Source: Thermodesulfobacteriota bacterium (GTDB taxonomy: Bacteria > Thermosulfidibacterota > Thermosulfidibacteria > Thermosulfidibacterales > B14-G1). Taken from it: 18,539 bases of DNA. The translations under genes were made by a program, and so were the position numbers. Shown here piece by piece: positions 3,331 to 18,337 of this stretch. The notes below the pieces were generated by a model. That model was not told where the DNA came from and did not search any database. It was given only the letters and a program-made list of their open reading frames with translations. How positions within the stretch are numbered: the first letter of the stretch is position 1; each line of letters begins with the position of its first letter. The stretch lies in contig JAJSAC010000061.1 in the NCBI GenBank assembly GCA_024274915.1, positions 1-18,539 of the forward strand, read 5' to 3'.

Positions 3331-4470
3331 GTGGATTTCAGCTTCAGCGAAAAGGAAGCGCTGCTCCGCAAATCCATTGCAGAGTTTGCCAAAAGGGAAA
3401 TCGCCCCCCTAGTGGATAAGATGGAGTCCCAGGGCGGCTTTGCCCCTGAAATCATCCCCCAGTTGGGGAAGATGGGCATCCTGGGTATCATTACCCCCCC
3501 TGAATACGGGGGCAACGGCATGGGTCATGTAGCCAAGACCATTGCCGTGGAGGAGATCTCCAAGGTCTGCCCCGGGGTAGGTCTCGTCCTGGAAGGCCAC
3601 TATGTCTGCACCTATCTCATCCAAACCTTCGGGTCCGAAGAACAGAAGAGAAATTACCTCCCCAGGCTCACCTCAGGCGAAACTCTGGGCTCCTTGGCCG
3701 TGACGGAACCCACCGGCGGCTCGGACGTGGCTGGCATCCAAACCATGGCCAAGAGAGAAGGTCGTCACTATACAGTTACGGGCAGGAAGTGCTTCATCTC
3801 CAACTCCCACGTGGCCACCGTCCATGCCACCCTGGCCCGAACAGGAGAAGGCCCCAAGGACTTCGCCGTCTTTATCGTAGAAAACTCCTTCCCCGGCTTC
3901 TCCCTGGGCCGCACGGAGAACAAGATGGGCCTTAGAAGCGCCACTACGGGAGAACTCATCCTGGAGAACTGCCAGGTCCCCATAGAAAACCTGGTGGGCA
4001 GAGAGGGAGACGGAGTGAAACAGGTCTTGGCCACCATCAACCAGGCGGCCAGGCCCACCATGGCCGCCGTAGCAGTGGGCATTTGTTATGCTTCCCTGGA
4101 GGAGGCTGCCAGATTTGCCAGGGAAAGGGTCCTCTACGGCAAACCCATTTCCAATCTCCAAGCTATCCAGTTCCTCCTAGCCGATATCTTTGCCCAAGCC
4201 GAAGCAGCCAGGCTCCTCACTTATCGGGCCGCCAGCCTCTTGGACCAAGGGCAGCCCTCGGACATAGAAGCCACTATGGCCAAGTATGTGGCCTGCGAAG
4301 CCGCCTTCCAATGCGCCCGTTGGGCGGCTGACATCCATGGAGGATACAGTGTGATCAAGGAGTTCGCCATAGAACGCCTACTCCGAGACGCCTGGGTCAC
4401 CATTCCCAGCTCAGGCACAGCCCAGGTGGCTAAAGTGGTGCTGGGTAGGCACGCCGCCAAGAACTTTTAA
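3331..4470 (+). CDS. Acyl-CoA dehydrogenase family protein (short/medium-chain-like, 379 aa), GTG start
   Basis: N-terminal MDFSFSEKEALLRKSIAEFAKREIAPL, middle and C-terminal ACAD domains. Strong Shine-Dalgarno AAGGGAGGAGAGGAAAG directly upstream of the GTG. The C-terminal YEGT catalytic motif is replaced (see findings). Confidence 0.85.
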   Translation: MDFSFSEKEALLRKSIAEFAKREIAPLVDKMESQGGFAPEIIPQLGKMGILGIITPPEYGGNGMGHVAKTIAVEEISKVCPGVGLVLEGHYVCTYLIQTFGSEEQKRNYLPRLTSGETLGSLAVTEPTGGSDVAGIQTMAKREGRHYTVTGRKCFISNSHVATVHATLARTGEGPKDFAVFIVENSFPGFSLGRTENKMGLRSATTGELILENCQVPIENLVGREGDGVKQVLATINQAARPTMAAVAVGICYASLEEAARFARERVLYGKPISNLQAIQFLLADIFAQAEAARLLTYRAASLLDQGQPSDIEATMAKYVACEAAFQCARWAADIHGGYSVIKEFAIERLLRDAWVTIPSSGTAQVAKVVLGRHAAKNF

Positions 4471-9821: not shown

Positions 9822-9856
9822 AGAAAAACGGAAGGCCCCTCTCTTTGAGAGGGGCC
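9822..9856 (-). terminator. Intrinsic terminator downstream of the cytochrome operon (minus strand): stem ggcccctctc/gagaggggcc, 3-4-nt loop, followed by TTCCGTTTTTCT
   Basis: 10-bp perfect GC-rich stem read from the sequence, with a T-rich tail on the minus strand immediately 3' of the hairpin, 23 nt after the cytochrome stop. Confidence 0.55.
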
Positions 9857-9878: not shown

Positions 9879-11930
9879 TCAAGAGGATGGACCTCCCTTC
9901 TTTTTCAGCAACTCCTCGATGGCGTCCAACTCTTTAGAAGCCTCATCGAAGAGGTCTTGGGCATAGCTGACATTATGGATAGGGGCCAAACCCCGAAGAA
10001 CCTTTTTGATCTTGAGGGCCTTGGAATAGTGGACCCTCACCTTGGCTTCGTCCTTGGGCCCGAGCCTTATCACCTCCAAGGTCCTTGTCACTTTCGCTAT
10101 CCTGGCCTTGATTTTATCAGACAGATCCCTGACCTGATCCTTCCACTCATCCAACGCCTCACCATAGCTCTCGTCACCGTCGTGGCAATCGATACAGGTC
10201 TGTCTCACCTCCCTGTAAGAGACCTTGACGGACTGGGTCACATCGTGGCAGTCGACACAACCCACATCCTCTTCCACCATAGGATTGGGTTCGCCCCTGG
10301 ACAGTCCTCTGATGGCACCATGGTAAAAGGCCTTCTCCAAAGAGTGGCACCTGACACACCGACGAGTGGCATCCTTCATCTGGTGGTGACACTTGAGGCA
10401 GTCCTCCCGTTCGAGAAGGGTTTCCCCATGCCTATCCACGGAGTGACACTTCATACAGGGGATCTTCTCCTTTTCGGAGTGAAGCTTATGGGGAAAGACG
10501 AGCTTCTGCTGGAAGTAGACATCCTCAGGCATACCCAGACGCCTGTGGCACATGGTGGCACAATAGCCATCGGGGGTTGCGATAATGGCTGGCCTAGCTG
10601 GAATATAAGACCCCTGGGCCTTGTCCACCTTGTCCAAATTGTCCACAGCGATTCTCAAGAGCTTGACAGCGTATTCCACATTGTGAACCCCATGCCCAGC
10701 AGCCACAAGTCTGTAATCGTAGGTAGCCTCACTCAACAACCGGGCGAGATCCCCTTTTAGCCTCCCCTTGGCCCGGGAAGACCTTCTGAGTCTCTGACCC
10801 ACGTACTTCTCCAAACGACCCAGGTACTTATCCCAGTCTCTAAGCAAGAGGTCATACCCCTCCTCATGGCAATGGACACAGGAGGCAGGCGACGAGACCC
10901 TGGTCACTTCACCCCTAAAGCCCTTGGGATTGGGAAGACCCCTAATATGACAACCGTCACAGGTGACCTGGGCAGCAAACATCCTGCTGGGCAAATCCCC
11001 CAAGCCCTTACCACCTACACCCATGTACAACGCCTTCTGGGCACTGTGGAAGCGAGTGTGACAGTCACTGCACTTCACGAGGAAAGTCTTGACCAGCCTG
11101 ACATCTCCATGCTTGATCTTGGTGTGACAAACAAAACAGTCAATACCTTGCTTGCTCACATGAATGTCATGGGTCACCTTGGGATCCCTGGGCTTCTTTC
11201 TCATAACATGACAGGTGTGACACTTTTCATGGGGAACAGAGCCATCGCCCTCCACTATCTCCACGTGACACTGATCACAGCTCACCCCCAACTTCAGATA
11301 CTCCTGGTGGCGGAACTTGAACCCGTGATACTGGATCACCTTGGTGGGTGGACCATGGCAGGAGGGGCAACCAGTCACCGACTGTCCCTTGCCAGCACCC
11401 ATGAAGTGACAGGTAAAACAGACCGTTTCTTCAACACTTATATGCATCCCCTGAACAATGTGGGAATGGCAACTGGAGCACCTCAACTTTACGCCTCTAA
11501 GGGGCCCACTGAGATGTTGACTATGATTAAAGACAGGCCTATCCTTGACCACCAATTTCTCCGTAAAAAGCTCCTCTTTACGGTGACAACCCGATTGGAG
11601 ACAGGTAGTAGTGGTCACGTTCGCCCTGGGATACATATCATAAACTCCCAGGTTATACTTGATCACTGTAAGGAACATTTTTAGAGGTATCCCAGGGTGA
11701 CATTTGTAGCACGAAACCGCGTTGTGGGTAGAAGTCTTCCAGTGCTTATAATATGGCTTCTCATAATGGCAGGACAGGCAGAACTCTGGATTCTTGGACC
11801 TAATGTACAGATAAAAATAAGAGACAATACTAAATATAATCAGCAGTCCTATAGCCAGCGTTAAGAAATCTTTTCTCCTACTCCGTCTCAGCCTCCTGCT
11901 ATTCCTCTCTCTCTCTCTCAAACCCTTCAC
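9879..11930 (-). CDS. Membrane-anchored multihaem c-type cytochrome (683 aa). It has 16 canonical CXXCH motifs plus one CX3CH and one CX4CH. An N-terminal NapC/NirT/NrfH-like signal-anchor module is fused to a long multihaem extension. GTG start overlaps the upstream b-cytochrome stop (GTGA).
   Basis: CXXCH motifs were counted directly: CLSCH, CYKCH, CSSCH, CFTCH, CPSCH, CDQCH, CHTCH, CFVCH, CSDCH, CDGCH, CVHCH, CMKCH, CLKCH, CVRCH, CVDCH and CIDCH. The two variants are CLQSGCH and CATMCH. The N-terminus is RRLRRSRRK followed by a hydrophobic helix, then CLSCH...[11 protein letters not shown], which is NapC/NrfH-like. Confidence 0.85.
11905..11919. repeat. Dinucleotide microsatellite (CT)7.5 on the plus strand, (GA)7.5 in the coding sense, inside codons 4-9 (RERERN) of the 16-haem cytochrome gene
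   Basis: ctctctctctctctc read directly. A repeat of more than 7 units is unusual in an otherwise repeat-poor coding region. Confidence 0.9.
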
Positions 11931-12871
11931 TTCTCCATCCCCCCTTCCTTCTTCATCTCCTTTCTCAGAATCTCCACGTACTCCAGAGGATGTTCCTCAA
12001 CCAACTCGTCTTCCGATATTTTCCCCGTGAAGATAACAGGGTTCATAGGAAACTTGGAGGGATTTAGATGGGCATTGTAAAAATGCCAGCACACTATGGC
12101 CAATGTGGCCAGAAGGGCCTCGTCGCTGTGGGCCACATGGGCTATATCCGACACATACTTCGGGAGTATTCTTAAGAAGATATTAGGGAACCAGAGTATG
12201 AGACCGGAACATATCATGATCACACATCCCCAGTAGACAGCCCAGTAGTCAAACTTCTCCACGTAGCTGAAGCGATCGAACTTAGGTTTCTCCTTTGTCT
12301 TACCCAGATAGTATTTGATCATTTGAACCGCGTCCATGGCATCTTTGGGAGTGGGAATGAGCTTTTTAAAGTTGTAACGGCCCTCTTTTGTGAAGATGAT
12401 GTAAAATAAATGGAAGAGAGAAACAAAGATCAGGCCTGTAGCTCCCATCCTATGAAGGGTCCTGCTGGCCTCTATGCCTCCCAATAGAGCCAAAAGCTTG
12501 CCAGATATGCCCACATTGTGGAACTTCAGAGGCATACCGGTTATAATAAGAACAATAACACTGATGGCCATAATAGCGTGTTGGATGCGAACCGAGAGGC
12601 TGAACCTCTCAAAGTACCTTACTTCCCGCTTTTTCTCAGCTTTTATGAGCCTCCTGATCTCTTTCAGAACTACCGATTCCACCTCCCTTTCAATCTGAAC
12701 CAGCTTGTCTTCCACCACCACATCAAAGGCCACAAATGCGATATTTTCTATCTCTTCTAAAATCTTCTCCCTTTGCTCTTCATCCCAGGAAGCTATTTCG
12801 TCTTTGATAACCTCATAAACCCTCTCCTTCACCGACTCAGTCAGCTTCTCTCGAATCTCCTGGGCCGCCAT
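11927..12871 (-). CDS. Di-haem b-type membrane cytochrome, HyaC/FdnI/PhsC-like (Ni/Fe-hydrogenase b-type cytochrome family, PF01292-like), with an 85-aa charged N-terminal cytoplasmic extension
   Basis: Core [11 protein letters not shown]...(TM1), RTLHRMG..FHLFY (TM2), [29 protein letters not shown]. Four helices with conserved His pairs. It is a paralog of the 13917-14600 and 16792-17418 genes. The ATG at 12871 shares one nucleotide with the upstream cytochrome c stop (TAATG). Confidence 0.85.
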
Positions 12872-13920
12872 TACCCCATGCCCTCCTTCTTCTCTTTGGT
12901 CTTTCTATAGAAATCCAAGAATATGTGGATAAAAATCACCCCCATGGTACCTGCGGTAAGAATGATAAAGAACTTGGCTACGTAATAGACAACCCCTGAA
13001 CTTTTGCTGTGCATATCCAAATGCATCTTCCCTTTGGCAAAGTTCTCGTTGGCCCCCGGATGACACTTGCCACAGGTTTTGGGAAGATTGGCCTTGTTCA
13101 CCGTGGACAAAGGATCGCTAGGAGCCCGGATGTTGTGAATCCCATGGCAACTAGAGCAGTTGGCAGCCCTCATCTCCCCAAATTCCAAGGCGATGCCGTG
13201 GAAACTCTCTTTATAGGTCTTGGCGGGGTCCAAAGAGACCTTAAACCGCCTCATCAGAGCCTGATCAGCATGGCACCTGGTACAGGTTTCAGGGACCTTC
13301 TGAGGGCTGACACTGGAGTAGGGCTTTCCTGGAGAGTACACGTCGTGCTTTCCGTGACAGTCTACACAGGCAGGGACAGCCATAACCCCCTTCTTCAGCA
13401 GTGCAACCCCGTGGACAGAGTTCTTATACTCCTGGTACGGCTTCCTGTGACACCTACCGCAGGTGGCAGGAACCTTCTTTTTGTTCACGGTGGAACGAGG
13501 GTTACTAGGCGAAAACACGCCGTGTCCCCCGTGACAATCCTGGCACCACGGCGCCCTAGGATCACCCGCCTTCACCTTTCCACCGTGAACACTGCCCCAA
13601 TATTTTTTATAAATAGAGTCAGGTTGGGGAATATTCTTTGGGGCTCCCTGGTAATGACATCGATCACAGTGAACCCTGCCTATCTTGAGCCCTTTATGGG
13701 GAATGACGGTGACATCAATGTGGCAGTCCTGACACTTGAGTCTCCTATGAACAGAGGCCCTCAAAAGTTTCCTGTCCACGTAGACCGAAACCTCGGCCCC
13801 AGAAGGAAGAACCTTTTTTAGCTCTGGCTTTTGGTGACAGATTATACATTTCCTTATAGCCCCTTCCCCAGAAAGGGGTACAAAAAAAAGAACGAGAAAG
13901 AAAACCAAAGCCCGCTTCAC
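12871..13920 (-). CDS. Nonahaem c-type cytochrome (about 349 aa) with a cleavable signal peptide, three tandem paired-CXXCH repeat units and a C-terminal transmembrane anchor; GTG start overlapping the upstream b-cytochrome stop (GTGA)
   Basis: Nine CXXCH motifs: CIICH, CQDCH, CDRCH, CQDCH, CGRCH, CVDCH, CTRCH, CSSCH and CGKCH. Signal peptide [21 protein letters not shown] after a GTG with GGAGGGGGAG Shine-Dalgarno. The ORF-track N-terminus (MVDRKDQ...) runs through the upstream gene and is rejected. The C-terminus [26 protein letters not shown] is followed by RKTKEKK. Three repeats of C.DCHG.H.V.SP..P.S.V....VP.TCG.CH fit the doubled-CXXCH domain (PF09699-like). Confidence 0.85.
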
Positions 13921-14600
13921 TTCTCCCCCTCCCCACCGAAGAGTTTCTCGTACTCTAGAGGATGCTCCTTTTCCAAACGCTCCACACTGATCTTTCCGGT
14001 CAACCATACGGGATCCATAGGGAAGTTCTCTCTGAGATGCATGTCATAAAGATGCCAAACCACAATCACCGTAAAGACAAGCAAGGCTTCATAACTGTGA
14101 AAGACATAAACAAAATCCAAAATCCCCTTGGAGAGAACCGCCACACTTTTGTTATGAAACCAAAGCATAATACCCGAGATCTCCATGCTCACCACCCCAC
14201 CCACCACCAACCAGTACTGGAACTTTTGGCGGTAGTTAAAGCGGCCAAAACGAGGCTTCTGCTGAGAGGCACCAAGGGTATAAGAAAGAGAAAGCTTAAA
14301 GTCCCTCCAGTCTTTCATGTTGGGTAGAAGCTCCAAAAACTGCTCGTGCCCTCTCCTGGTGAAGAGGACATAAAAAAAGTGGTACAAGGATACCACCAGA
14401 AGCAGCACCGCCCCTATCCTATGGATGGTCCCCCTCGCTTGGAAGCCACCCTCCAGCTCAATAAAAAACCGCCCCCAGGAAGTATCAGCGTACTTAAGGG
14501 CGAACCCAGAAACCAAAAGGAGCACCACGGCAATGAAAAGGATAAAGTGCTGGATCCTCTCGTTAAGGGTAAACCTCTCTACATAAAGCGGATCTGCCAT
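13917..14600 (-). CDS. Di-haem b-type membrane cytochrome, HyaC/FdnI/PhsC-like (paralog 2, 227 aa, no N-terminal extension)
   Basis: [12 protein letters not shown] (TM1), [63 protein letters not shown]. These are collinear with the 11927-12871 protein. GGAGG is 8 nt upstream of the ATG. Confidence 0.85.
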
Positions 14601-14620
14601 CGCCTAACCTCCCCCTCTCT

Positions 14621-15412
14621 CTATTCGCCTTTGTCGGTCACCTTAGGGATCTCCTTCAGAAACGGCGTGAGTAGATCAAGGGGAATAGGGAAGATCAAGG
14701 TGGACGTGCTCTCAGAAGAGATCTCCATAAGGGTTTGGAGAAAACGGAGCTGAAGGGCCGCCGGGTGCTTGCCGATAATCTCGGCAGCCGATGCCAGGGT
14801 TTGGGCGGCCTGGTATTCTCCCTCGGCACTGATGATCTTGGCCCGCCTCTCCCTCTCAGCCTCAGCCTGACGGGCCATGGCCCTCTGCATTTCATGAGGC
14901 AGATCTATGTGCTTCAACTCCACCGTACTCACCTTAATCCCCCAAGGTTCCGTGTGCTCGTCCAGGATCCTCTGGAGCTCGGCATTGATGCGCTCCCTTT
15001 CCGAAAGGAGCTCGTCCAGTTCATGGTACCCCAGAACACTTCTCAAAGTGGTCTGGGCCAACTGAGAGGTGGCCGACATAAAGTCCTCCACCTCTATTAC
15101 GGCCTTGTCCGGGGCCACCACCCTAAAATAGACCACCGCATTGACCTTGATGGAGACGTTGTCCTTGGTGATGACGTCCTGGGGAGTCACATCCATAACT
15201 ACTGTTCTAAGGCTCACCTTGATCATACGATCTATCAGGGGGAGCAGGATGATAATACCCGGACCTTTAGTGGCCACGTACCTGCCCAGGCGAAAGATCA
15301 CCCCCCGCTCGTACTCCTTCAACACCCTGATGGTAGAGGAGAGGATGACAACCAAGATGACAAATATTATGAAGTAGGCGAATAAGTTCACAAAAGCTTT
15401 ATACAATACCAT
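14621..15412 (-). CDS. SPFH/band-7 (stomatin/slipin-like) membrane protein; start re-called to an ATG with a GGAGGT Shine-Dalgarno (the ORF-track start is a TTG)
   Basis: N-terminal transmembrane helix [14 protein letters not shown] followed by the SPFH core [18 protein letters not shown]...[27 protein letters not shown] and a C-terminal coiled coil rich in A/E/R ([24 protein letters not shown]). Confidence 0.85.
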
Positions 15413-15685
15413 TACCTTTACCTCCTGATCCGGTTTTTTATCCAATCCCCATTTTATTCAGCCGTTATATTTACAATGATAGATAAGTTTGCTATGTTTA
15501 CTCTTCTTTCTCTAAAAGCGGAGTACCAAGTCATCCACCTCAAACACTCAGTATAAAGACGTTAACGGACCATACCACCAGGGGAAATTGATGTCAACGG
15601 CGGCTACAGAGGCCCTTGACAGGGAAACGGAGACTATGTTACCGGCGGCACAAAGACGAACAAATCCCCACTGGAGGTTTTGCTG
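15413..15685. promoter_or_regulatory. Divergent intergenic region (273 nt) that should carry promoters for the SPFH-b-c-b-c operon (minus strand) and the c7-b pair (plus strand). AT-rich core at 15451-15515; TTGACA at 15616-15621; direct repeat GTYAACGG at 15561-15568 and 15592-15599; TTGATGTCAA at 15588-15597.
   Basis: Base composition and motifs read directly. No convincing -35/-10 pair with 17-nt spacing could be fixed by eye. Confidence 0.35.
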
Positions 15686-16795
15686 ATGAAGGGACAGAGA
15701 TGGAAATGGCTCTTCGTGGCTTTCATGTCCCTATCCTTTCTCCTCGTCCTCCCGCTCCACTTGCAAGCCATAGAAAACAGCGAATGTTTAGATTGCCACG
15801 GCGACCCCGACATGGTGAAAGAGTTACCCAGCGGAAAAACCATTTCCCTGTATGTGAATCCCAAGAAATTTGAAGCCTCTGTCCACGGCCAAAACGAGAT
15901 AGCCTGCACCGACTGCCACTCAGACATTACCGAACTGAACTACGACCAAGAGGTGCCCCACCCTGTCCCCGTAGCCTTCGTCAACTGTACTGATTGCCAT
16001 GATGAAGAAGGCACAGCCTACGAAGAGAGCGTCCACGCAGCAGCCAGGGTAAAAGGGGTTAAAGGAGCTCCCATCTGTTACAACTGCCACGACTTTCACT
16101 ACACCAAATACCTTTACGGCGACACCGTGGTGCAACTGGAAAACAAATTCTGCCTGAGATGCCACAACCCCAACAAGTACCACAAATGGCTGCCCCAAAA
16201 GAAAACCCACTTCGAGTATGTCATGTGTGCTGTATGCCACGCCCCAGACGTGGGAAGGCACATAAACCTGAGGCTTTATGACCTGATGTCAGAGAAGTTC
16301 CTCACCGGCGAGGAGATCGTCCAGAAGCTTGGGGTCACCTTTGATAATTTCATGGACAAGATGGACCTCAACAAAGACGGTGTACTGGATACAAAAGAAT
16401 TCCACCGGTTGGTAAGGGAGCTAAGAATAAACAAGGTGAGGGCCATCTTCTGGGGAGAAATGACAGACAACCTGAAACCCGAAGTCCACAAGGTTACCAA
16501 GGGAAGGGCTATCAAAAAGTGCGAAACCTGCCACTCTATCAAGTCCCCCTTTTTTGATAAGGTCTACCTCATCTTCACACATCCCACGGGAAAGGCCGAG
16601 CACTACCCCCTGAAGAGAAAGGTGCTCCAATCCTTCTACGTCACCCATTTCTACGCCATTGATGCCACCAGGGTAAAACTTCTAGACGTCATTGGTCTCC
16701 TCATAGTCCTGGGCGGAGTAGCCTTCGCCGGAGGCCACCTGACCCTCAGGATCCTTACCATACCCTTAAGGAGAAGAAGGAGGGAAGGGAGATGA
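15686..16795 (+). CDS. Heptahaem c-type cytochrome (370 aa) with signal peptide, an internal canonical EF-hand loop and a C-terminal transmembrane anchor; ATG start re-called (the ORF-track start at 15680 is TTG)
   Basis: Seven CXXCH motifs: CLDCH, CTDCH, CTDCH, CYNCH, CLRCH, CAVCH and CETCH. Signal peptide [33 protein letters not shown] is 7 nt upstream of the ATG. The C-terminus [26 protein letters not shown] is followed by RRRRREGR. The N-terminal module [34 protein letters not shown]....CTDCH is paralogous to the N-terminus of the nonahaem protein. Confidence 0.85.
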
Positions 16796-17418
16796 AACGC
16801 ATATACCTGCATCCCATACCCGTCAGGATCTGGCACTGGCTCCATGCCTTTGGCATAGCCTTCCTGGTCCTGAGTGGTATCCAGATCCGCTTCGCCGACT
16901 ACATCCTGGTGGTCCCCCTTAAAAAGGCCGTGGAACTTCACAACTTGGTGGGACTTATCGTGGCCGTAGATTATCTCCTGTGGTTCACCTTTTATGTGTT
17001 CACTGGAAGAATAAGAACCTACTTCCCCACGGCAGAGGAACTGATACTGGGAAGCATGCGCCAGGCCGTATATTACGGCTATGGCATCTTCAGGGGTGAC
17101 CCAAGCCCCTTCCACCCCACCCCGGAAAACAAGTTCAATCCCATGCAGAAGATGGCTTACCTCTTTATAATGCTCTTCTTCATCCCCATCCAGATCCTTA
17201 CAGGCTTCCTCCTATGGAACATCAAAGGCTACAGGGAAATTATCGATTTTATGGGAGGGGTCAAGATTGTGGACACCATCCACGTCCTTTTATTCTTCTT
17301 CTTCTTCGCCTTTATTATCGCCCATGCCTATCTGGCCACCCTGGGTCACACCCCCTGGGCCCATTTCAAAGCCATGATCACAGGGTGGGAAGAAGAGCCC
17401 GAAGAAGAACACTCGTAG
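16792..17418 (+). CDS. Di-haem b-type membrane cytochrome, HyaC/PhsC-like (paralog 3, 208 aa), ATGA-coupled to the heptahaem cytochrome
   Basis: [14 protein letters not shown] (TM1 with His), [44 protein letters not shown]. Four helices with His ligand candidates. Acidic C-terminal tail. Confidence 0.8.
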
Positions 17419-17482: not shown

Positions 17483-18337
17483 TCATTTGCTGGCGTTGGC
17501 CTCTTTGCCCGTCTCCTTATAAGGTACGGGAATATACTGGACAGAGGGCCTGGCCTGGGTGGGCTGGTCGTAGAGGTCCATAAGGGTGTAAACCTCAGAG
17601 GGTATTTCTGTGCTTACCTTCAACCCAAGGGCCTCCAAGTCCTCTTTGAAGAGGGGATAATCGTGGGTCCATCTTCCCTGGGAAAGCTCCTCGGCCACCT
17701 CTTCTGCTTTCCCTTGATCCATACCCTTCTCTATGAGAATCTGGGCAACTTTCTTTCTCACCTGTTGAAGGGCTTTTTCGGAAACATCAGCCATGATAAG
17801 GGTTTTATCCTCCACCTTATCCAAAGGCTTCTCTCTCACTGCCTTCACGATGGACGCCGCCGGAAAACCTCCCAACTGGGGATCTACAGGACCCAGGACG
17901 GCATTGGGATCCATAATGATCTCATCAGCCGCCAGGGCAATGAAAGTACCACCAGACATGGCAAAGTGGGGCACAATCACCGTCACCTTCCCCTTGTGCC
18001 TCACCAGAGCGGTGGCAATCTGTTCGGCAGCCAAAACCAGGCCTCCAGGGGTGTGGATAATGAGGTCAATGGGCATATCATCAGGGGTCAGCCTGACGGC
18101 CCTCAGAACCCTCTCCGAGTCCTCTATGTTGATGTACTTCATGAAGGGGATGCCCAAAAAGGAAAAACCCTCCTGGCGGTGGATCATGGTTATGACCCTG
18201 GAATTTCTCCTCTCTTCAATCTTCCGGATCGTCTTGAGTCGTGCTGCCTCCAACATGCGCTGCCTCATCCAAGGACTGAAGGAAAGCAAAATGAGTAGCA
18301 ACCAGAAAATATCGAAAAAACTGGGGCTATAGTGCAT
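17483..18337 (-). CDS. Membrane-anchored Clp-fold serine protease of the SDH/S49 (SppA/NfeD-like) type, 284 aa
   Basis: N-terminal transmembrane helix FFDIFWLLLILLSFSPW. ClpP/crotonase-fold core IDLIIHTPGGLVLAAEQIATALVRHKGKVTVIVPHFAMSGGTFIALAADEIIMDPNAVLGPVDP (the nucleophile Ser sits in AMSGG). The length and motif pattern fit the 'SDH family Clp fold serine proteinase' group as recalled. GAGGAGG Shine-Dalgarno upstream of the ATG. Confidence 0.7.
   Translation of the reverse strand: MHYSPSFFDIFWLLLILLSFSPWMRQRMLEAARLKTIRKIEERRNSRVITMIHRQEGFSFLGIPFMKYINIEDSERVLRAVRLTPDDMPIDLIIHTPGGLVLAAEQIATALVRHKGKVTVIVPHFAMSGGTFIALAADEIIMDPNAVLGPVDPQLGGFPAASIVKAVREKPLDKVEDKTLIMADVSEKALQQVRKKVAQILIEKGMDQGKAEEVAEELSQGRWTHDYPLFKEDLEALGLKVSTEIPSEVYTLMDLYDQPTQARPSVQYIPVPYKETGKEANASK

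Follow-up and report, generated by a model that had tools for sequence, protein, structure and literature searches.

The 18,539-nucleotide window analysed here, a stretch of contig JAJSAC010000061.1 from a Thermodesulfobacteriota bacterium, carries between positions 9879 and 17418 a cluster of genes for cytochromes b and multihaem cytochromes c. An earlier note on this DNA had described six adjacent cytochrome genes, forming three paralogous pairs without a catalytic subunit, and had likened them to the inner-membrane Cbc complexes of Geobacter. The six cytochrome open reading frames (ORFs) lie where the note placed them, in two divergent units as it described (b2-c9-b1-c16 on the minus strand, c7-b3 on the plus strand), and the Cbc-type reading holds: the CbcL (b plus nine-haem c) and CbcBA (b plus seven-haem c) compositions that the note had given agree with the papers. 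However, the genes are not all adjacent. The interval contains seven ORFs, and the additional one, an SPFH/Band_7 gene on the minus strand (14621-15445), intervenes between the two sets of cytochrome genes.

On the minus strand, b2 (13917-14600) encodes a 227-residue, four-helix cytochrome b of the FdnI/CbcL type, a paralogue of b1 whose partner is uncertain. The next gene, c9 (12871-13920), starts with GTG and encodes a protein of 349 residues, equal in length to its orthologues, with a signal peptide, nine CXXCH motifs and a C-terminal transmembrane (TM) anchor bearing His332. The product of b1 (11927-12871; 314 residues) is predicted to have a cytoplasmic helical N-terminal extension of ~85 residues followed by a four-helix b core of the FdnI fold and CbcL type. 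The last gene, c16 (9879-11930), encodes a 683-residue, 18-haem cytochrome c that begins with an NrfH-like signal anchor and continues with duplicated NrfA/OcwA-like modules. On the plus strand, c7 (15680-16795) encodes a CbcA-type protein of 371 residues with a signal peptide, seven haems, an EF-hand-like loop (residues 227-238) and a C-terminal TM anchor bearing His353, and b3 (16792-17418) a CbcB-type, 'thiosulfate-reductase-like' four-helix dihaem cytochrome b of 208 residues. The junctions b2-c9, c9-b1 and b1-c16 (GTGA, TAATG and GTGA) and the c7-b3 junction (ATGA) can be read in the DNA as the note gave them.

All three b proteins exceed the Pfam gathering cutoff for PF01292 (30.1 bits), with scores of 58.3 for b1, 55.9 for b2 and 84.3 for b3. 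Each has four TM helices; in b1, hydropathy resolved three of them and the AlphaFold2 model shows the fourth. The CXXCH counts of 7 in c7, 9 in c9 and 16 in c16 are those of the note, and its range of 16-18 haems for c16 can be fixed at 18 by two invariant variant motifs, CX4CH (residue 110) and CX3CH (residue 457). Apart from PF03264 on c16, the c proteins match only generic multihaem Pfam families. By hydropathy, the haem domains of c7 and c9 lie between a signal-like segment at the N-terminus and a TM helix at the C-terminus, and the only TM helix of c16 is N-terminal, following a stretch rich in Arg and Lys. All three c proteins carry export or anchor signals, as the note proposed. Pfam annotation revealed no molybdopterin, iron-sulfur (FeS) or NiFe subunit gene anywhere in the window. 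The window encodes one flavoprotein, an unrelated acyl-CoA dehydrogenase (3331-4470), ~5 kb away and outside the cluster.

Ligands, folds and pairing of the cytochromes

Residues 35-305 of c7 match PDB 28pb_A (E = 1.4e-14, 28.7% identity), with seven of seven CXXCH motifs aligned. This 278-residue chain belongs to an entry named only 'Cytochrome c', which is very probably Geobacter CbcA. According to a review (PMC13591261), CbcA of G. sulfurreducens is a seven-haem protein anchored by a C-terminal helix, and the crystal structure of its periplasmic domain is cited there as Antunes et al. 2026. Joshi, Chan & Bond 2021 described its partner CbcB as a four-TM dihaem cytochrome b, the homologues of which are highly conserved and annotated 'thiosulfate reductase', and proposed that the CbcA anchor contributes a histidine; the operon lies near a sigma-54 regulator. 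The TM helix of c7 (residues ~332-358) bears such a histidine, His353. Its anchor motif, GGHLTLRxLTIP, recurs with substitutions, and with the His kept, in four homologues including those from Deferribacteres and Desulfobulbus metagenome-assembled genomes (MAGs). The haem spacing of c7 is kept in these four c partners, and three of the four have the EF-hand-like loop.

This loop is encoded at 16358-16393 of the window and lies between haems 6 and 7. It scores 22 bits with the Pfam model EF-hand_1, which is under the cutoff, and is also seen in the homologues at L003, L085 and L086 (Lnnn and Pnnnn denote homologous loci and proteins of our comparison set) and in PDB 28pb_A (DTNNDNYISLAE). It may represent a Ca2+ site in CbcA-type cytochromes.

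The b3 protein matches the NCBIfam PhsC model NF011582 with E = 1.8e-37, at 129 bits against a cutoff of 204. Homologues more than 50% identical to it are spread across Deferribacteres, Nitrospirota and Desulfobulbaceae, where they are annotated as thiosulfate reductase cytochrome b. Among 121 sequences, seven histidines (His7, 15, 50, 164, 178, 186 and 191) show a conservation of 93% or more, and His15, His50, His164 and His178 make up the FdnI-like set. At all three b3-type loci in other phyla a multihaem c gene lies upstream (4-bp overlap in two, 36 bp in the third) and no catalytic neighbour was found; a sigma-54 activator follows the b3 homologue in the Desulfobulbus locus L086. These features mark c7-b3 as what appears to be a new member of the CbcBA family. 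CbcBA-type pairs occur far outside Desulfuromonadia, with the anchor His and the EF-hand-like loop conserved.

The ligands of the minus-strand proteins are similarly conserved. In 51 orthologues plus the window protein, 10 of the 12 non-motif His of c9 are invariant, and the anchor His332 is conserved at 96%. In b1, His98 (TM1), His154 (TM2), His248, 263 and 268 (around TM4) and His294 are invariant and His140 (TM2) reaches 98%; in b2, His18, 60, 74, 168, 183 and 188 are at least 96% conserved in 23 orthologues plus the window protein. The canonical ligand set that the note had posited is conserved in each b family. The AlphaFold2 model of b1 (pLDDT, the predicted local distance difference test, 87) has FdnI (1kqf_C) as its best fold match, with E = 3.6e-6 and a TM-score of 0.79. 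Residues 1-85 of b1 (window 12617-12871) are predicted to form a cytoplasmic helical hairpin of helices 2-22 and 31-82 (pLDDT ~84). A charged, sequence-variable N-terminal extension of ~60-100 residues is present in all b1 orthologues, and b2, b3 and FdnI are without it.

The pairing of these proteins is suggested by natural fusions. Twenty-nine fusion proteins are collinear with c9 residues 25-342, including the TM anchor, followed by the b1/b2 core from about residue 69-87 of b1. An anchored c gene followed by a b gene is likewise found in c7-b3, in Geobacter cbcA-cbcB and in the c7-b3-type pairs of other phyla. Because the natural fusions run c9 then b1, these two proteins, judged from fusions and gene order, likely form a split CbcL-like unit, and the pairing of the note (b2 with c9, b1 with c16) is probably in the wrong register. 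The b2 protein would then be an accessory CbcL-type cytochrome b. The window has no counterpart of the 11-haem anchored c that is encoded directly upstream of b2 in several other genomes. Of three machine-read fragments of Geobacter CbcL taken from a supplementary alignment, one scored z = 12 against shuffles when compared with b1 172-215; the other two were unremarkable.

The view of the array as three paralogous modules stands only in part. The b1 and b2 proteins share 45% identity over their cores, and c7 and c9 share 31% over ~175 residues, which correspond to the five-haem N-terminal half. By BLASTP, b3 shows no significant similarity to b1 (E = 0.24) and marginal similarity to b2 (E = 0.003), and belongs to a different PF01292 subfamily; c16 resembles c7 and c9 in haem motifs only. 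Since relatedness is confined to b1/b2 and the c7/c9 halves, with b3 and c16 apart, the array is no simple triplication. The tandem triplication proposed in the note is further contradicted by the separate, CbcBA-type family of c7-b3, a pair that lies beside c16 only in the closest relative (L003/L005) among the homologous loci.

Full-length homologues of c16, many of them from MAGs, share 31-79% identity and are annotated as hypothetical or 'cytochrome c3 family'. Every sequence in alignments of 22 and 78 members retains the 16 CXXCH motifs and the two variant ones, and a few members have 20 motifs. As the variant motifs are invariant, and canonical CXXCH in some members, the c16 family is expected to bind 18 haems. 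The N-terminus matches PF03264 with 26.1 bits (cutoff 24.1), over profile positions 10-95 of 174 only, and TIGR03153 with 30.9 bits against a cutoff of 134. Residues 31-101 align with Desulfovibrio NrfH (2j7a_C) over the TM helix and the first two haems (E ~1e-3). The Met of the haem-1 motif CXXCHXM, present in 53 of 78 members, is replaced by Glu in 22 of 78, which belong to the window clade and an Acidobacteriota clade; in the window protein this Glu is residue 57 of CLSCHYE (window 11760-11762). In the Glu-bearing clades the quinol-side haem of c16 may be ligated differently.

The best sequence match of the remainder is OcwA of Thermincola (PDB 6i5b; residues 207-444, E = 5e-12), and an internal repeat relates residues 254-437 to 481-673 (27% identity, E = 4e-13). 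The AlphaFold2 model (pLDDT 82, predicted TM-score 0.50) shows two three-helix bundles; its nearest folds are OcwA, MccA and NrfA, and Foldseek returned no global fold match at E <= 1e-3. There are 15 conserved non-motif His for 18 haems, and Met317, Met551 and Met57 are conserved as well, so up to three haems may be non-bis-His (His/Met or open). Neither CXXCK nor an MccA-type CX15CH motif is present in the c16 sequence. We also considered c16 as an HmcA-type 16-haem cytochrome and rejected this assignment, because no HmcA chain appears among its PDB matches at E <= 1 and the cluster has no FeS or NrfD-like gene.

Some larger proteins of the comparison set contain c16-like NapC-type modules behind polytopic domains. 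Six of ~1320-1440 residues (P0437, P0480, P0488, P0489, P0515 and P0520) have ~20-27 hydrophobic segments ahead of the modules, and three of ~760-776 residues (P0471, P0490 and P0514) have ~9 hydrophobic segments. The N-terminal polytopic domains gave no Pfam match and no similarity to b1/b2, and for this reason the ~1300-1440-residue proteins were rejected as c-b-c16 triple fusions.

Distribution and gene neighbourhood

An exhaustive search recovered c16 homologues in 308 clusters at 50% identity (E <= 1e-30), and a scan identified 330 species-representative genomes as carriers. Taxonomy was read from the best 80 of these 330 genomes, essentially all of them MAGs. The carriers include Acidobacteriota, Deferrimicrobia/MBNT15 ('Deltaproteobacteria'), Desulfobacterales-labelled genomes, an Aquificota-labelled MAG, NC10, Zixibacteria, Latescibacterota, Calditrichota, Schekmanbacteria and others; the c16 family occurs in NC10/Methylomirabilis and in many groundwater MAGs. 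The suggestion that the array may be undescribed can no longer be kept: the minus-strand cluster is present in ~330 species-level genomes and has been noted as 'cluster 1' of an MBNT15 MAG (PMC9386147), the only published mention of a similar cluster that we found.

To analyze gene order, 81 loci were annotated by homology-first ORF calling, with phmmer labels assigned using the window proteins as queries; in 77 of the loci the available DNA extends 1 kb or more upstream. At 69 of the 81 loci the gene immediately preceding c16 in the same orientation is of the b1 type, and 41 of these pairs overlap by 4 bp. A c9-type gene lies upstream of b1 at 51 loci, and a b2-type gene directly upstream of c9 at 25. 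Fused proteins, in which a signal peptide is followed by a haem region (typically 11 haems), a TM helix and a b domain, are encoded within 10 kb at 31 loci. The conserved core is therefore c9-b1-c16 with b2 optional, and it represents a widespread uncharacterised Cbc variant. Downstream of c16 the genes vary by phylum (GGDEF regulator, methionine synthase, TatD, histidine kinase or ABC ATPase). Across ~85 related loci, no conserved catalytic subunit was found next to the cytochromes, and the homologous clusters of ~80 other genomes agree in this respect with what the note had supposed.

The closest relative is an unclassified MAG with 79% identity, in which the whole island is syntenic; beyond the point corresponding to the right edge of the window it has MscS-type and BrkB-type genes only. 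In a 58%-identical relative, b2-c9-b1-c16 lies between an ABC transporter and flagellar genes. The cluster is also present in a cultured bacterium, Thermoanaerobaculum aquaticum MP-01 (JMFG01000008.1, ~129,500-138,900), where the gene order is c (406 residues), b (260), a 54-residue ORF, b2 (234), c9 (353), b1 (303), c16 (652), c (144) and a NapC-type c (650). Thermoanaerobaculum aquaticum reduces Fe(III) and Mn(IV). No published description of the cluster in Thermoanaerobaculum or Caldithrix was found in the literature searched.

A few loci depart from the common pattern. An Aminicenantia MAG (L061, 12457-18085) is the only locus with redox-enzyme-like genes after c16; they encode a membrane protein with 4Fe-4S dicluster and NarI-like domains and a 1492-residue flavoprotein/FeS protein (Pyr_redox_2, Fer4_20). 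In three NC10/Methylomirabilis loci (L073, L077 and L078) the c16 homologue is shorter (517-518 residues, 13 haems), and the gene after it encodes another c16-like protein (735-758 residues, 16 haems); the upstream b genes of L073 and L078 appear unusually long, which may be a gene-calling artefact or a fusion. In a 'Deltaproteobacteria' MAG (L004, CP070770.1, 12020-15864), c16 is followed by genes for a bc1-type cytochrome b (PF00033/PF00032), a nine-haem c and an 11-haem NapC-type c. With these genes, the operon-like array of this MAG includes another kind of Cbc-like unit.

In the window itself, the SPFH gene encodes a stomatin/HflK-like membrane protein (PF01145, E = 8.9e-41) and probably heads the minus-strand operon. 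Its 3' end lies 20 bp upstream of the b2 start, so it may be co-transcribed with the cytochromes, and the closest relative (L003) has the same arrangement. Promoters and terminators were called as consensus matches only. The top-scoring candidate of the scan, a sigma-70-like site at 15569-15597 (-) with TTGACA, a 17-nt spacer, TATGGT and an extended -10 TG (10 of 12 positions), precedes the SPFH gene, and a terminator-like hairpin of the intrinsic type (9834-9856, -; 10-bp stem, eight GC pairs, T-rich tail) directly follows the c16 stop; this suggests a five-gene operon, SPFH-b2-c9-b1-c16. The sigma-70-like candidate upstream of c7 (15470-15498, +), which also has an extended -10 TG, agrees with the consensus only weakly, at 9 of 12 positions. 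The window contains no gene for a regulator.

The c7-b3 pair is flanked by the SPFH/Band_7 gene and by a gene for an SDH-type ClpP-like protease (17483-18337, -; PF01972, E = 1e-130), and the layout around it is the same in L003. SPFH/Band_7 and SDH-type protease genes are usually adjacent partners. The protease was rejected as a conserved neighbour of c7-b3, since the 278-residue neighbour in L085 is unrelated. The other genes of the window are murE, rsmH and those for NUDIX, DUF123, amidohydrolase, APH, HAD, aldolase, PfkB and DUF1614 proteins. The murE ORF as listed (130-1614, -) overlaps rsmH (1494-2408, -) by 121 nt; its start is probably internal, a more plausible Met (MKLQEV...) lying ~42 codons downstream of the listed one.

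Proposed mechanism and alternative explanations

From the homologies, topology signals, conserved ligands, synteny and fusions described above, we infer, with a probability of roughly 65%, that both divergent units are inner-membrane oxidoreductases of the Cbc type, which are built of b and c cytochromes only and connect the quinone pool with periplasmic cytochromes. In the plus-strand unit, b3 would exchange electrons with menaquinol/menaquinone and with the seven-haem c7, the C-terminal helix of which, with its conserved His, would pack against b3. By analogy with FdnI, menaquinol would be oxidised near the b haem on the cytoplasmic side, and electrons would cross the membrane via two b haems to the anchored c subunit and on to periplasmic or extracellular acceptors. 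The anchored c subunit would thereby take the place of the FeS beta subunit of formate dehydrogenase N (Fdh-N). In the minus-strand unit, electrons would go on into the 18-haem c16 as an obligatory third partner. The NrfH-like helix would hold this protein in the membrane, and its 18 haems, arranged in two NrfA/OcwA-like modules, could extend the haem chain into the periplasm and serve there as a wire or capacitor, or could be the last donor before soluble or outer acceptors.

Outward flow, that is quinol oxidation, is favoured by analogy, because CbcL and CbcBA work that way and the cultured carrier is a metal reducer. Both complexes are menaquinol oxidases in a metal reducer (Joshi, Chan & Bond 2021; PMC13591261). 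Geobacter uses different Cbc complexes at different potentials (Joshi, Chan & Bond 2021; PMC13591261), and by the same analogy it is plausible that the units described here serve several redox-potential windows.

Several points weigh against this interpretation. Members of the c9-b1-c16 cluster are known from sequence alone, and no outer-membrane conduit or periplasmic carrier is visible within the window. The c9-b1 pairing derives from gene order and fusions, not from structures, and as all four junctions are equally tight, b2 may instead pair with c9. Our comparison with the b domain of Geobacter CbcL used machine-read fragments only, that with CbcB used its published description, and 28pb can be equated with CbcA only indirectly, as the review prints the code as '2BPB'. 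Any quinol site of c16 may be altered by the Glu in place of Met in the haem-1 motif, and open haems in this protein may allow catalysis.

One alternative, which we regard as unlikely but worth keeping in view, is that electrons flow in reverse, from extracellular or periplasmic donors such as Fe(II), a syntrophic partner or reduced shuttles to menaquinone at the cytoplasmic-side site, generating proton-motive force as in Fdh-N. The b1 core has the FdnI fold, and FdnI in Fdh-N works in the quinone-reducing direction. In addition, Zhong & Shi 2018 put MtoC of Dechloromonas aromatica, an Fe(II) oxidiser, in one group with CbcL homologues. The occurrence of the family in NC10/Methylomirabilis and many groundwater MAGs would also fit this direction. 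However, the Cbc complexes characterised so far, CbcL and CbcBA, act as menaquinol oxidases, and the sole cultured carrier found, T. aquaticum, is a metal reducer; the direction is not decidable from sequence information alone.

It is rather unlikely that c16 is itself a catalytic multihaem reductase, an NrfH-like anchor joined to NrfA/OcwA-like modules, for which c9-b1 (and b2) would be the quinol dehydrogenase. Such a role would suit its best match, as OcwA is a terminal reductase of Thermincola, the three of 18 haems that have no conserved distal His, and its coupling to b1, which lies directly upstream at most loci. On the other hand, the three missing ligands could be supplied by the conserved Met317, Met551 and Met57, the protein is without the CXXCK and CX15CH motifs, and Foldseek detects no global fold match at the threshold given above; the AlphaFold2 model is haem-free, so that active-site geometry is not judgeable.

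We also doubt that the island consists of three independent paralogous modules (b2+c9, b1+c16 and c7+b3), which arose by tandem triplication and were tuned to different redox windows. The two genes of each supposed pair do overlap at start and stop, b1 and b2 are genuine paralogues, no junction is better conserved than b1-c16, and the Cbc complexes of Geobacter do differ by potential. But the fusions join a c9-like domain to a following b domain, the c9-b1 junction is equally tight, and many clusters with c9-b1-c16 are without b2. Moreover, c7/b3 is another family, found near c16 only in the closest relative, and c16 is no paralogue of c7 or c9.

It is tempting to imagine, though improbable, that b2, c9, b1 and c16 assemble into one supercomplex with at least 31 haems, which would join an NrfH-type quinone site of c16 on the periplasmic face to FdnI-type sites of b1/b2 on the cytoplasmic face; c9 His332 and b1 His154 and His268 would then bind a third b haem at the interface. 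If true, the assembly could operate as a Rieske-free quinone loop, as a circuit akin to a Q cycle, or as a gate for electrons that responds to redox potential, and hundreds of uncultured lineages would possess a kind of respiratory bc complex that has so far escaped notice.

The idea that the b proteins simply anchor a formate dehydrogenase, hydrogenase or thiosulfate reductase, the catalytic subunits of which are encoded elsewhere, can practically be dismissed: their best NCBIfam matches are indeed formate dehydrogenase gamma (b1, b2) and PhsC (b3), and homologue names agree, but the scores fall far under the curated cutoffs (58-69 against 116 bits for b1/b2; 129 against 204 for b3), the conserved neighbours at the loci examined are multihaem cytochromes and never alpha/beta catalytic subunits, and an anchored c fills the place of the beta or small subunit.

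The reading of both units as Cbc-type oxidoreductases bears on the least understood step of extracellular electron transfer, as inner-membrane quinol:cytochrome oxidoreductases have been studied almost only in Geobacter and Shewanella. Thermoanaerobaculum aquaticum, being cultured, provides an experimental handle on the cluster. Should the cluster turn out to oxidise quinol in metal reduction, its genes would help to recognise this capacity in uncultured phyla. The pairing logic, an anchored c in place of the FeS beta subunit of Fdh-N, may help to predict subunit contacts in other Cbc complexes.

Comparison with known systems

The cluster can be set apart from several respiratory complexes that contain large cytochromes c. 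The Hmc/Tmc/Nhc complexes combine a cytochrome related to the 16-haem HmcA of Desulfovibrio and built of c3-like domains with FeS and NrfD/NarI-type partners, and the c16 cluster matches neither. To alternative complex III and Qrc, c16 shows only weak local similarity (ActA, E = 3e-6 over 90 residues; QrcA, 25 against 180 bits), and the NrfD-like and FeS genes of these systems are absent from the cluster. OcwA has nine haems and resides on the cell surface of a Gram-positive bacterium, whereas c16 is membrane-anchored and has twice the haems, with the module duplicated. The start of c16 resembles NrfH/NapC/CymA in its single TM helix and two CXXCH motifs, and the modules that follow are like the NrfA family. 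In contrast to NrfH and the NrfHA complex, c16 holds 18 haems in one chain and is without the CXXCK catalytic haem; it also has an FdnI-type b as its partner, for which NrfH has no need.

Begmatov et al. 2022 (PMC9386147) described 'cluster 1' of MBNT15 SHF-111 as four multihaem cytochromes c (9-16 motifs) and two four-TM cytochromes b with no catalytic subunit, and proposed that it oxidises quinol for Fe(III) reduction. This genome-annotation note counted 16 haems in the large cytochrome and suggested an outer-membrane site for it, whereas the NrfH-like N-terminal anchor of c16 points to the inner membrane. The version in the window differs further in that it is without the 11-haem proteins and starts with the SPFH gene.

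The four-helix dihaem fold and the His ligand positions of FdnI, the gamma subunit of E. coli Fdh-N (1kqf_C), recur in b1, and in Fdh-N, too, a partner subunit lends an extra C-terminal TM helix. That partner is the FeS beta subunit, coupled to a molybdoenzyme; here it would be a multihaem c, with no molybdoenzyme, and b1/b2 carry additional conserved His relative to FdnI.

Among the Cbc complexes, CbcBA (GSU0593/0594) shares with c7-b3 the seven haems and the His-bearing C-terminal TM anchor of the c subunit, the c-then-b gene order with an overlap, and the lack of a catalytic subunit; by its description, CbcB is, like b3, a four-TM dihaem 'thiosulfate-reductase-like' cytochrome b. In CbcBA, however, three of the canonical His would come from CbcB and one from CbcA (Joshi et al.), whereas b3 itself holds all four, and neither a BccR-like sigma-54 regulator nor a CbcC-type dodecahaem gene is adjacent in the window.

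In CbcL (GSU0274) a single polypeptide runs from a periplasmic c domain with nine haems through a TM helix into a b domain of the HydC/FdnI type, an arrangement that c9 and b1 reproduce as two genes. The split unit has five TM helices by hydropathy against six in CbcL, and b1 has the additional ~85-residue cytoplasmic helical extension. Moreover, c9-b1 is coupled to the 18-haem c16, and no such partner has been described for CbcL. The His pattern is alike: in CbcL the first helix bears one His, the next two one each, and a later helix a pair, to which correspond c9 His332, b1 His98, b1 His140 (and His154), and b1 His248 with His263. The likeness extends to the fused 11-haem homologues, which sit in the same clusters of other genomes.

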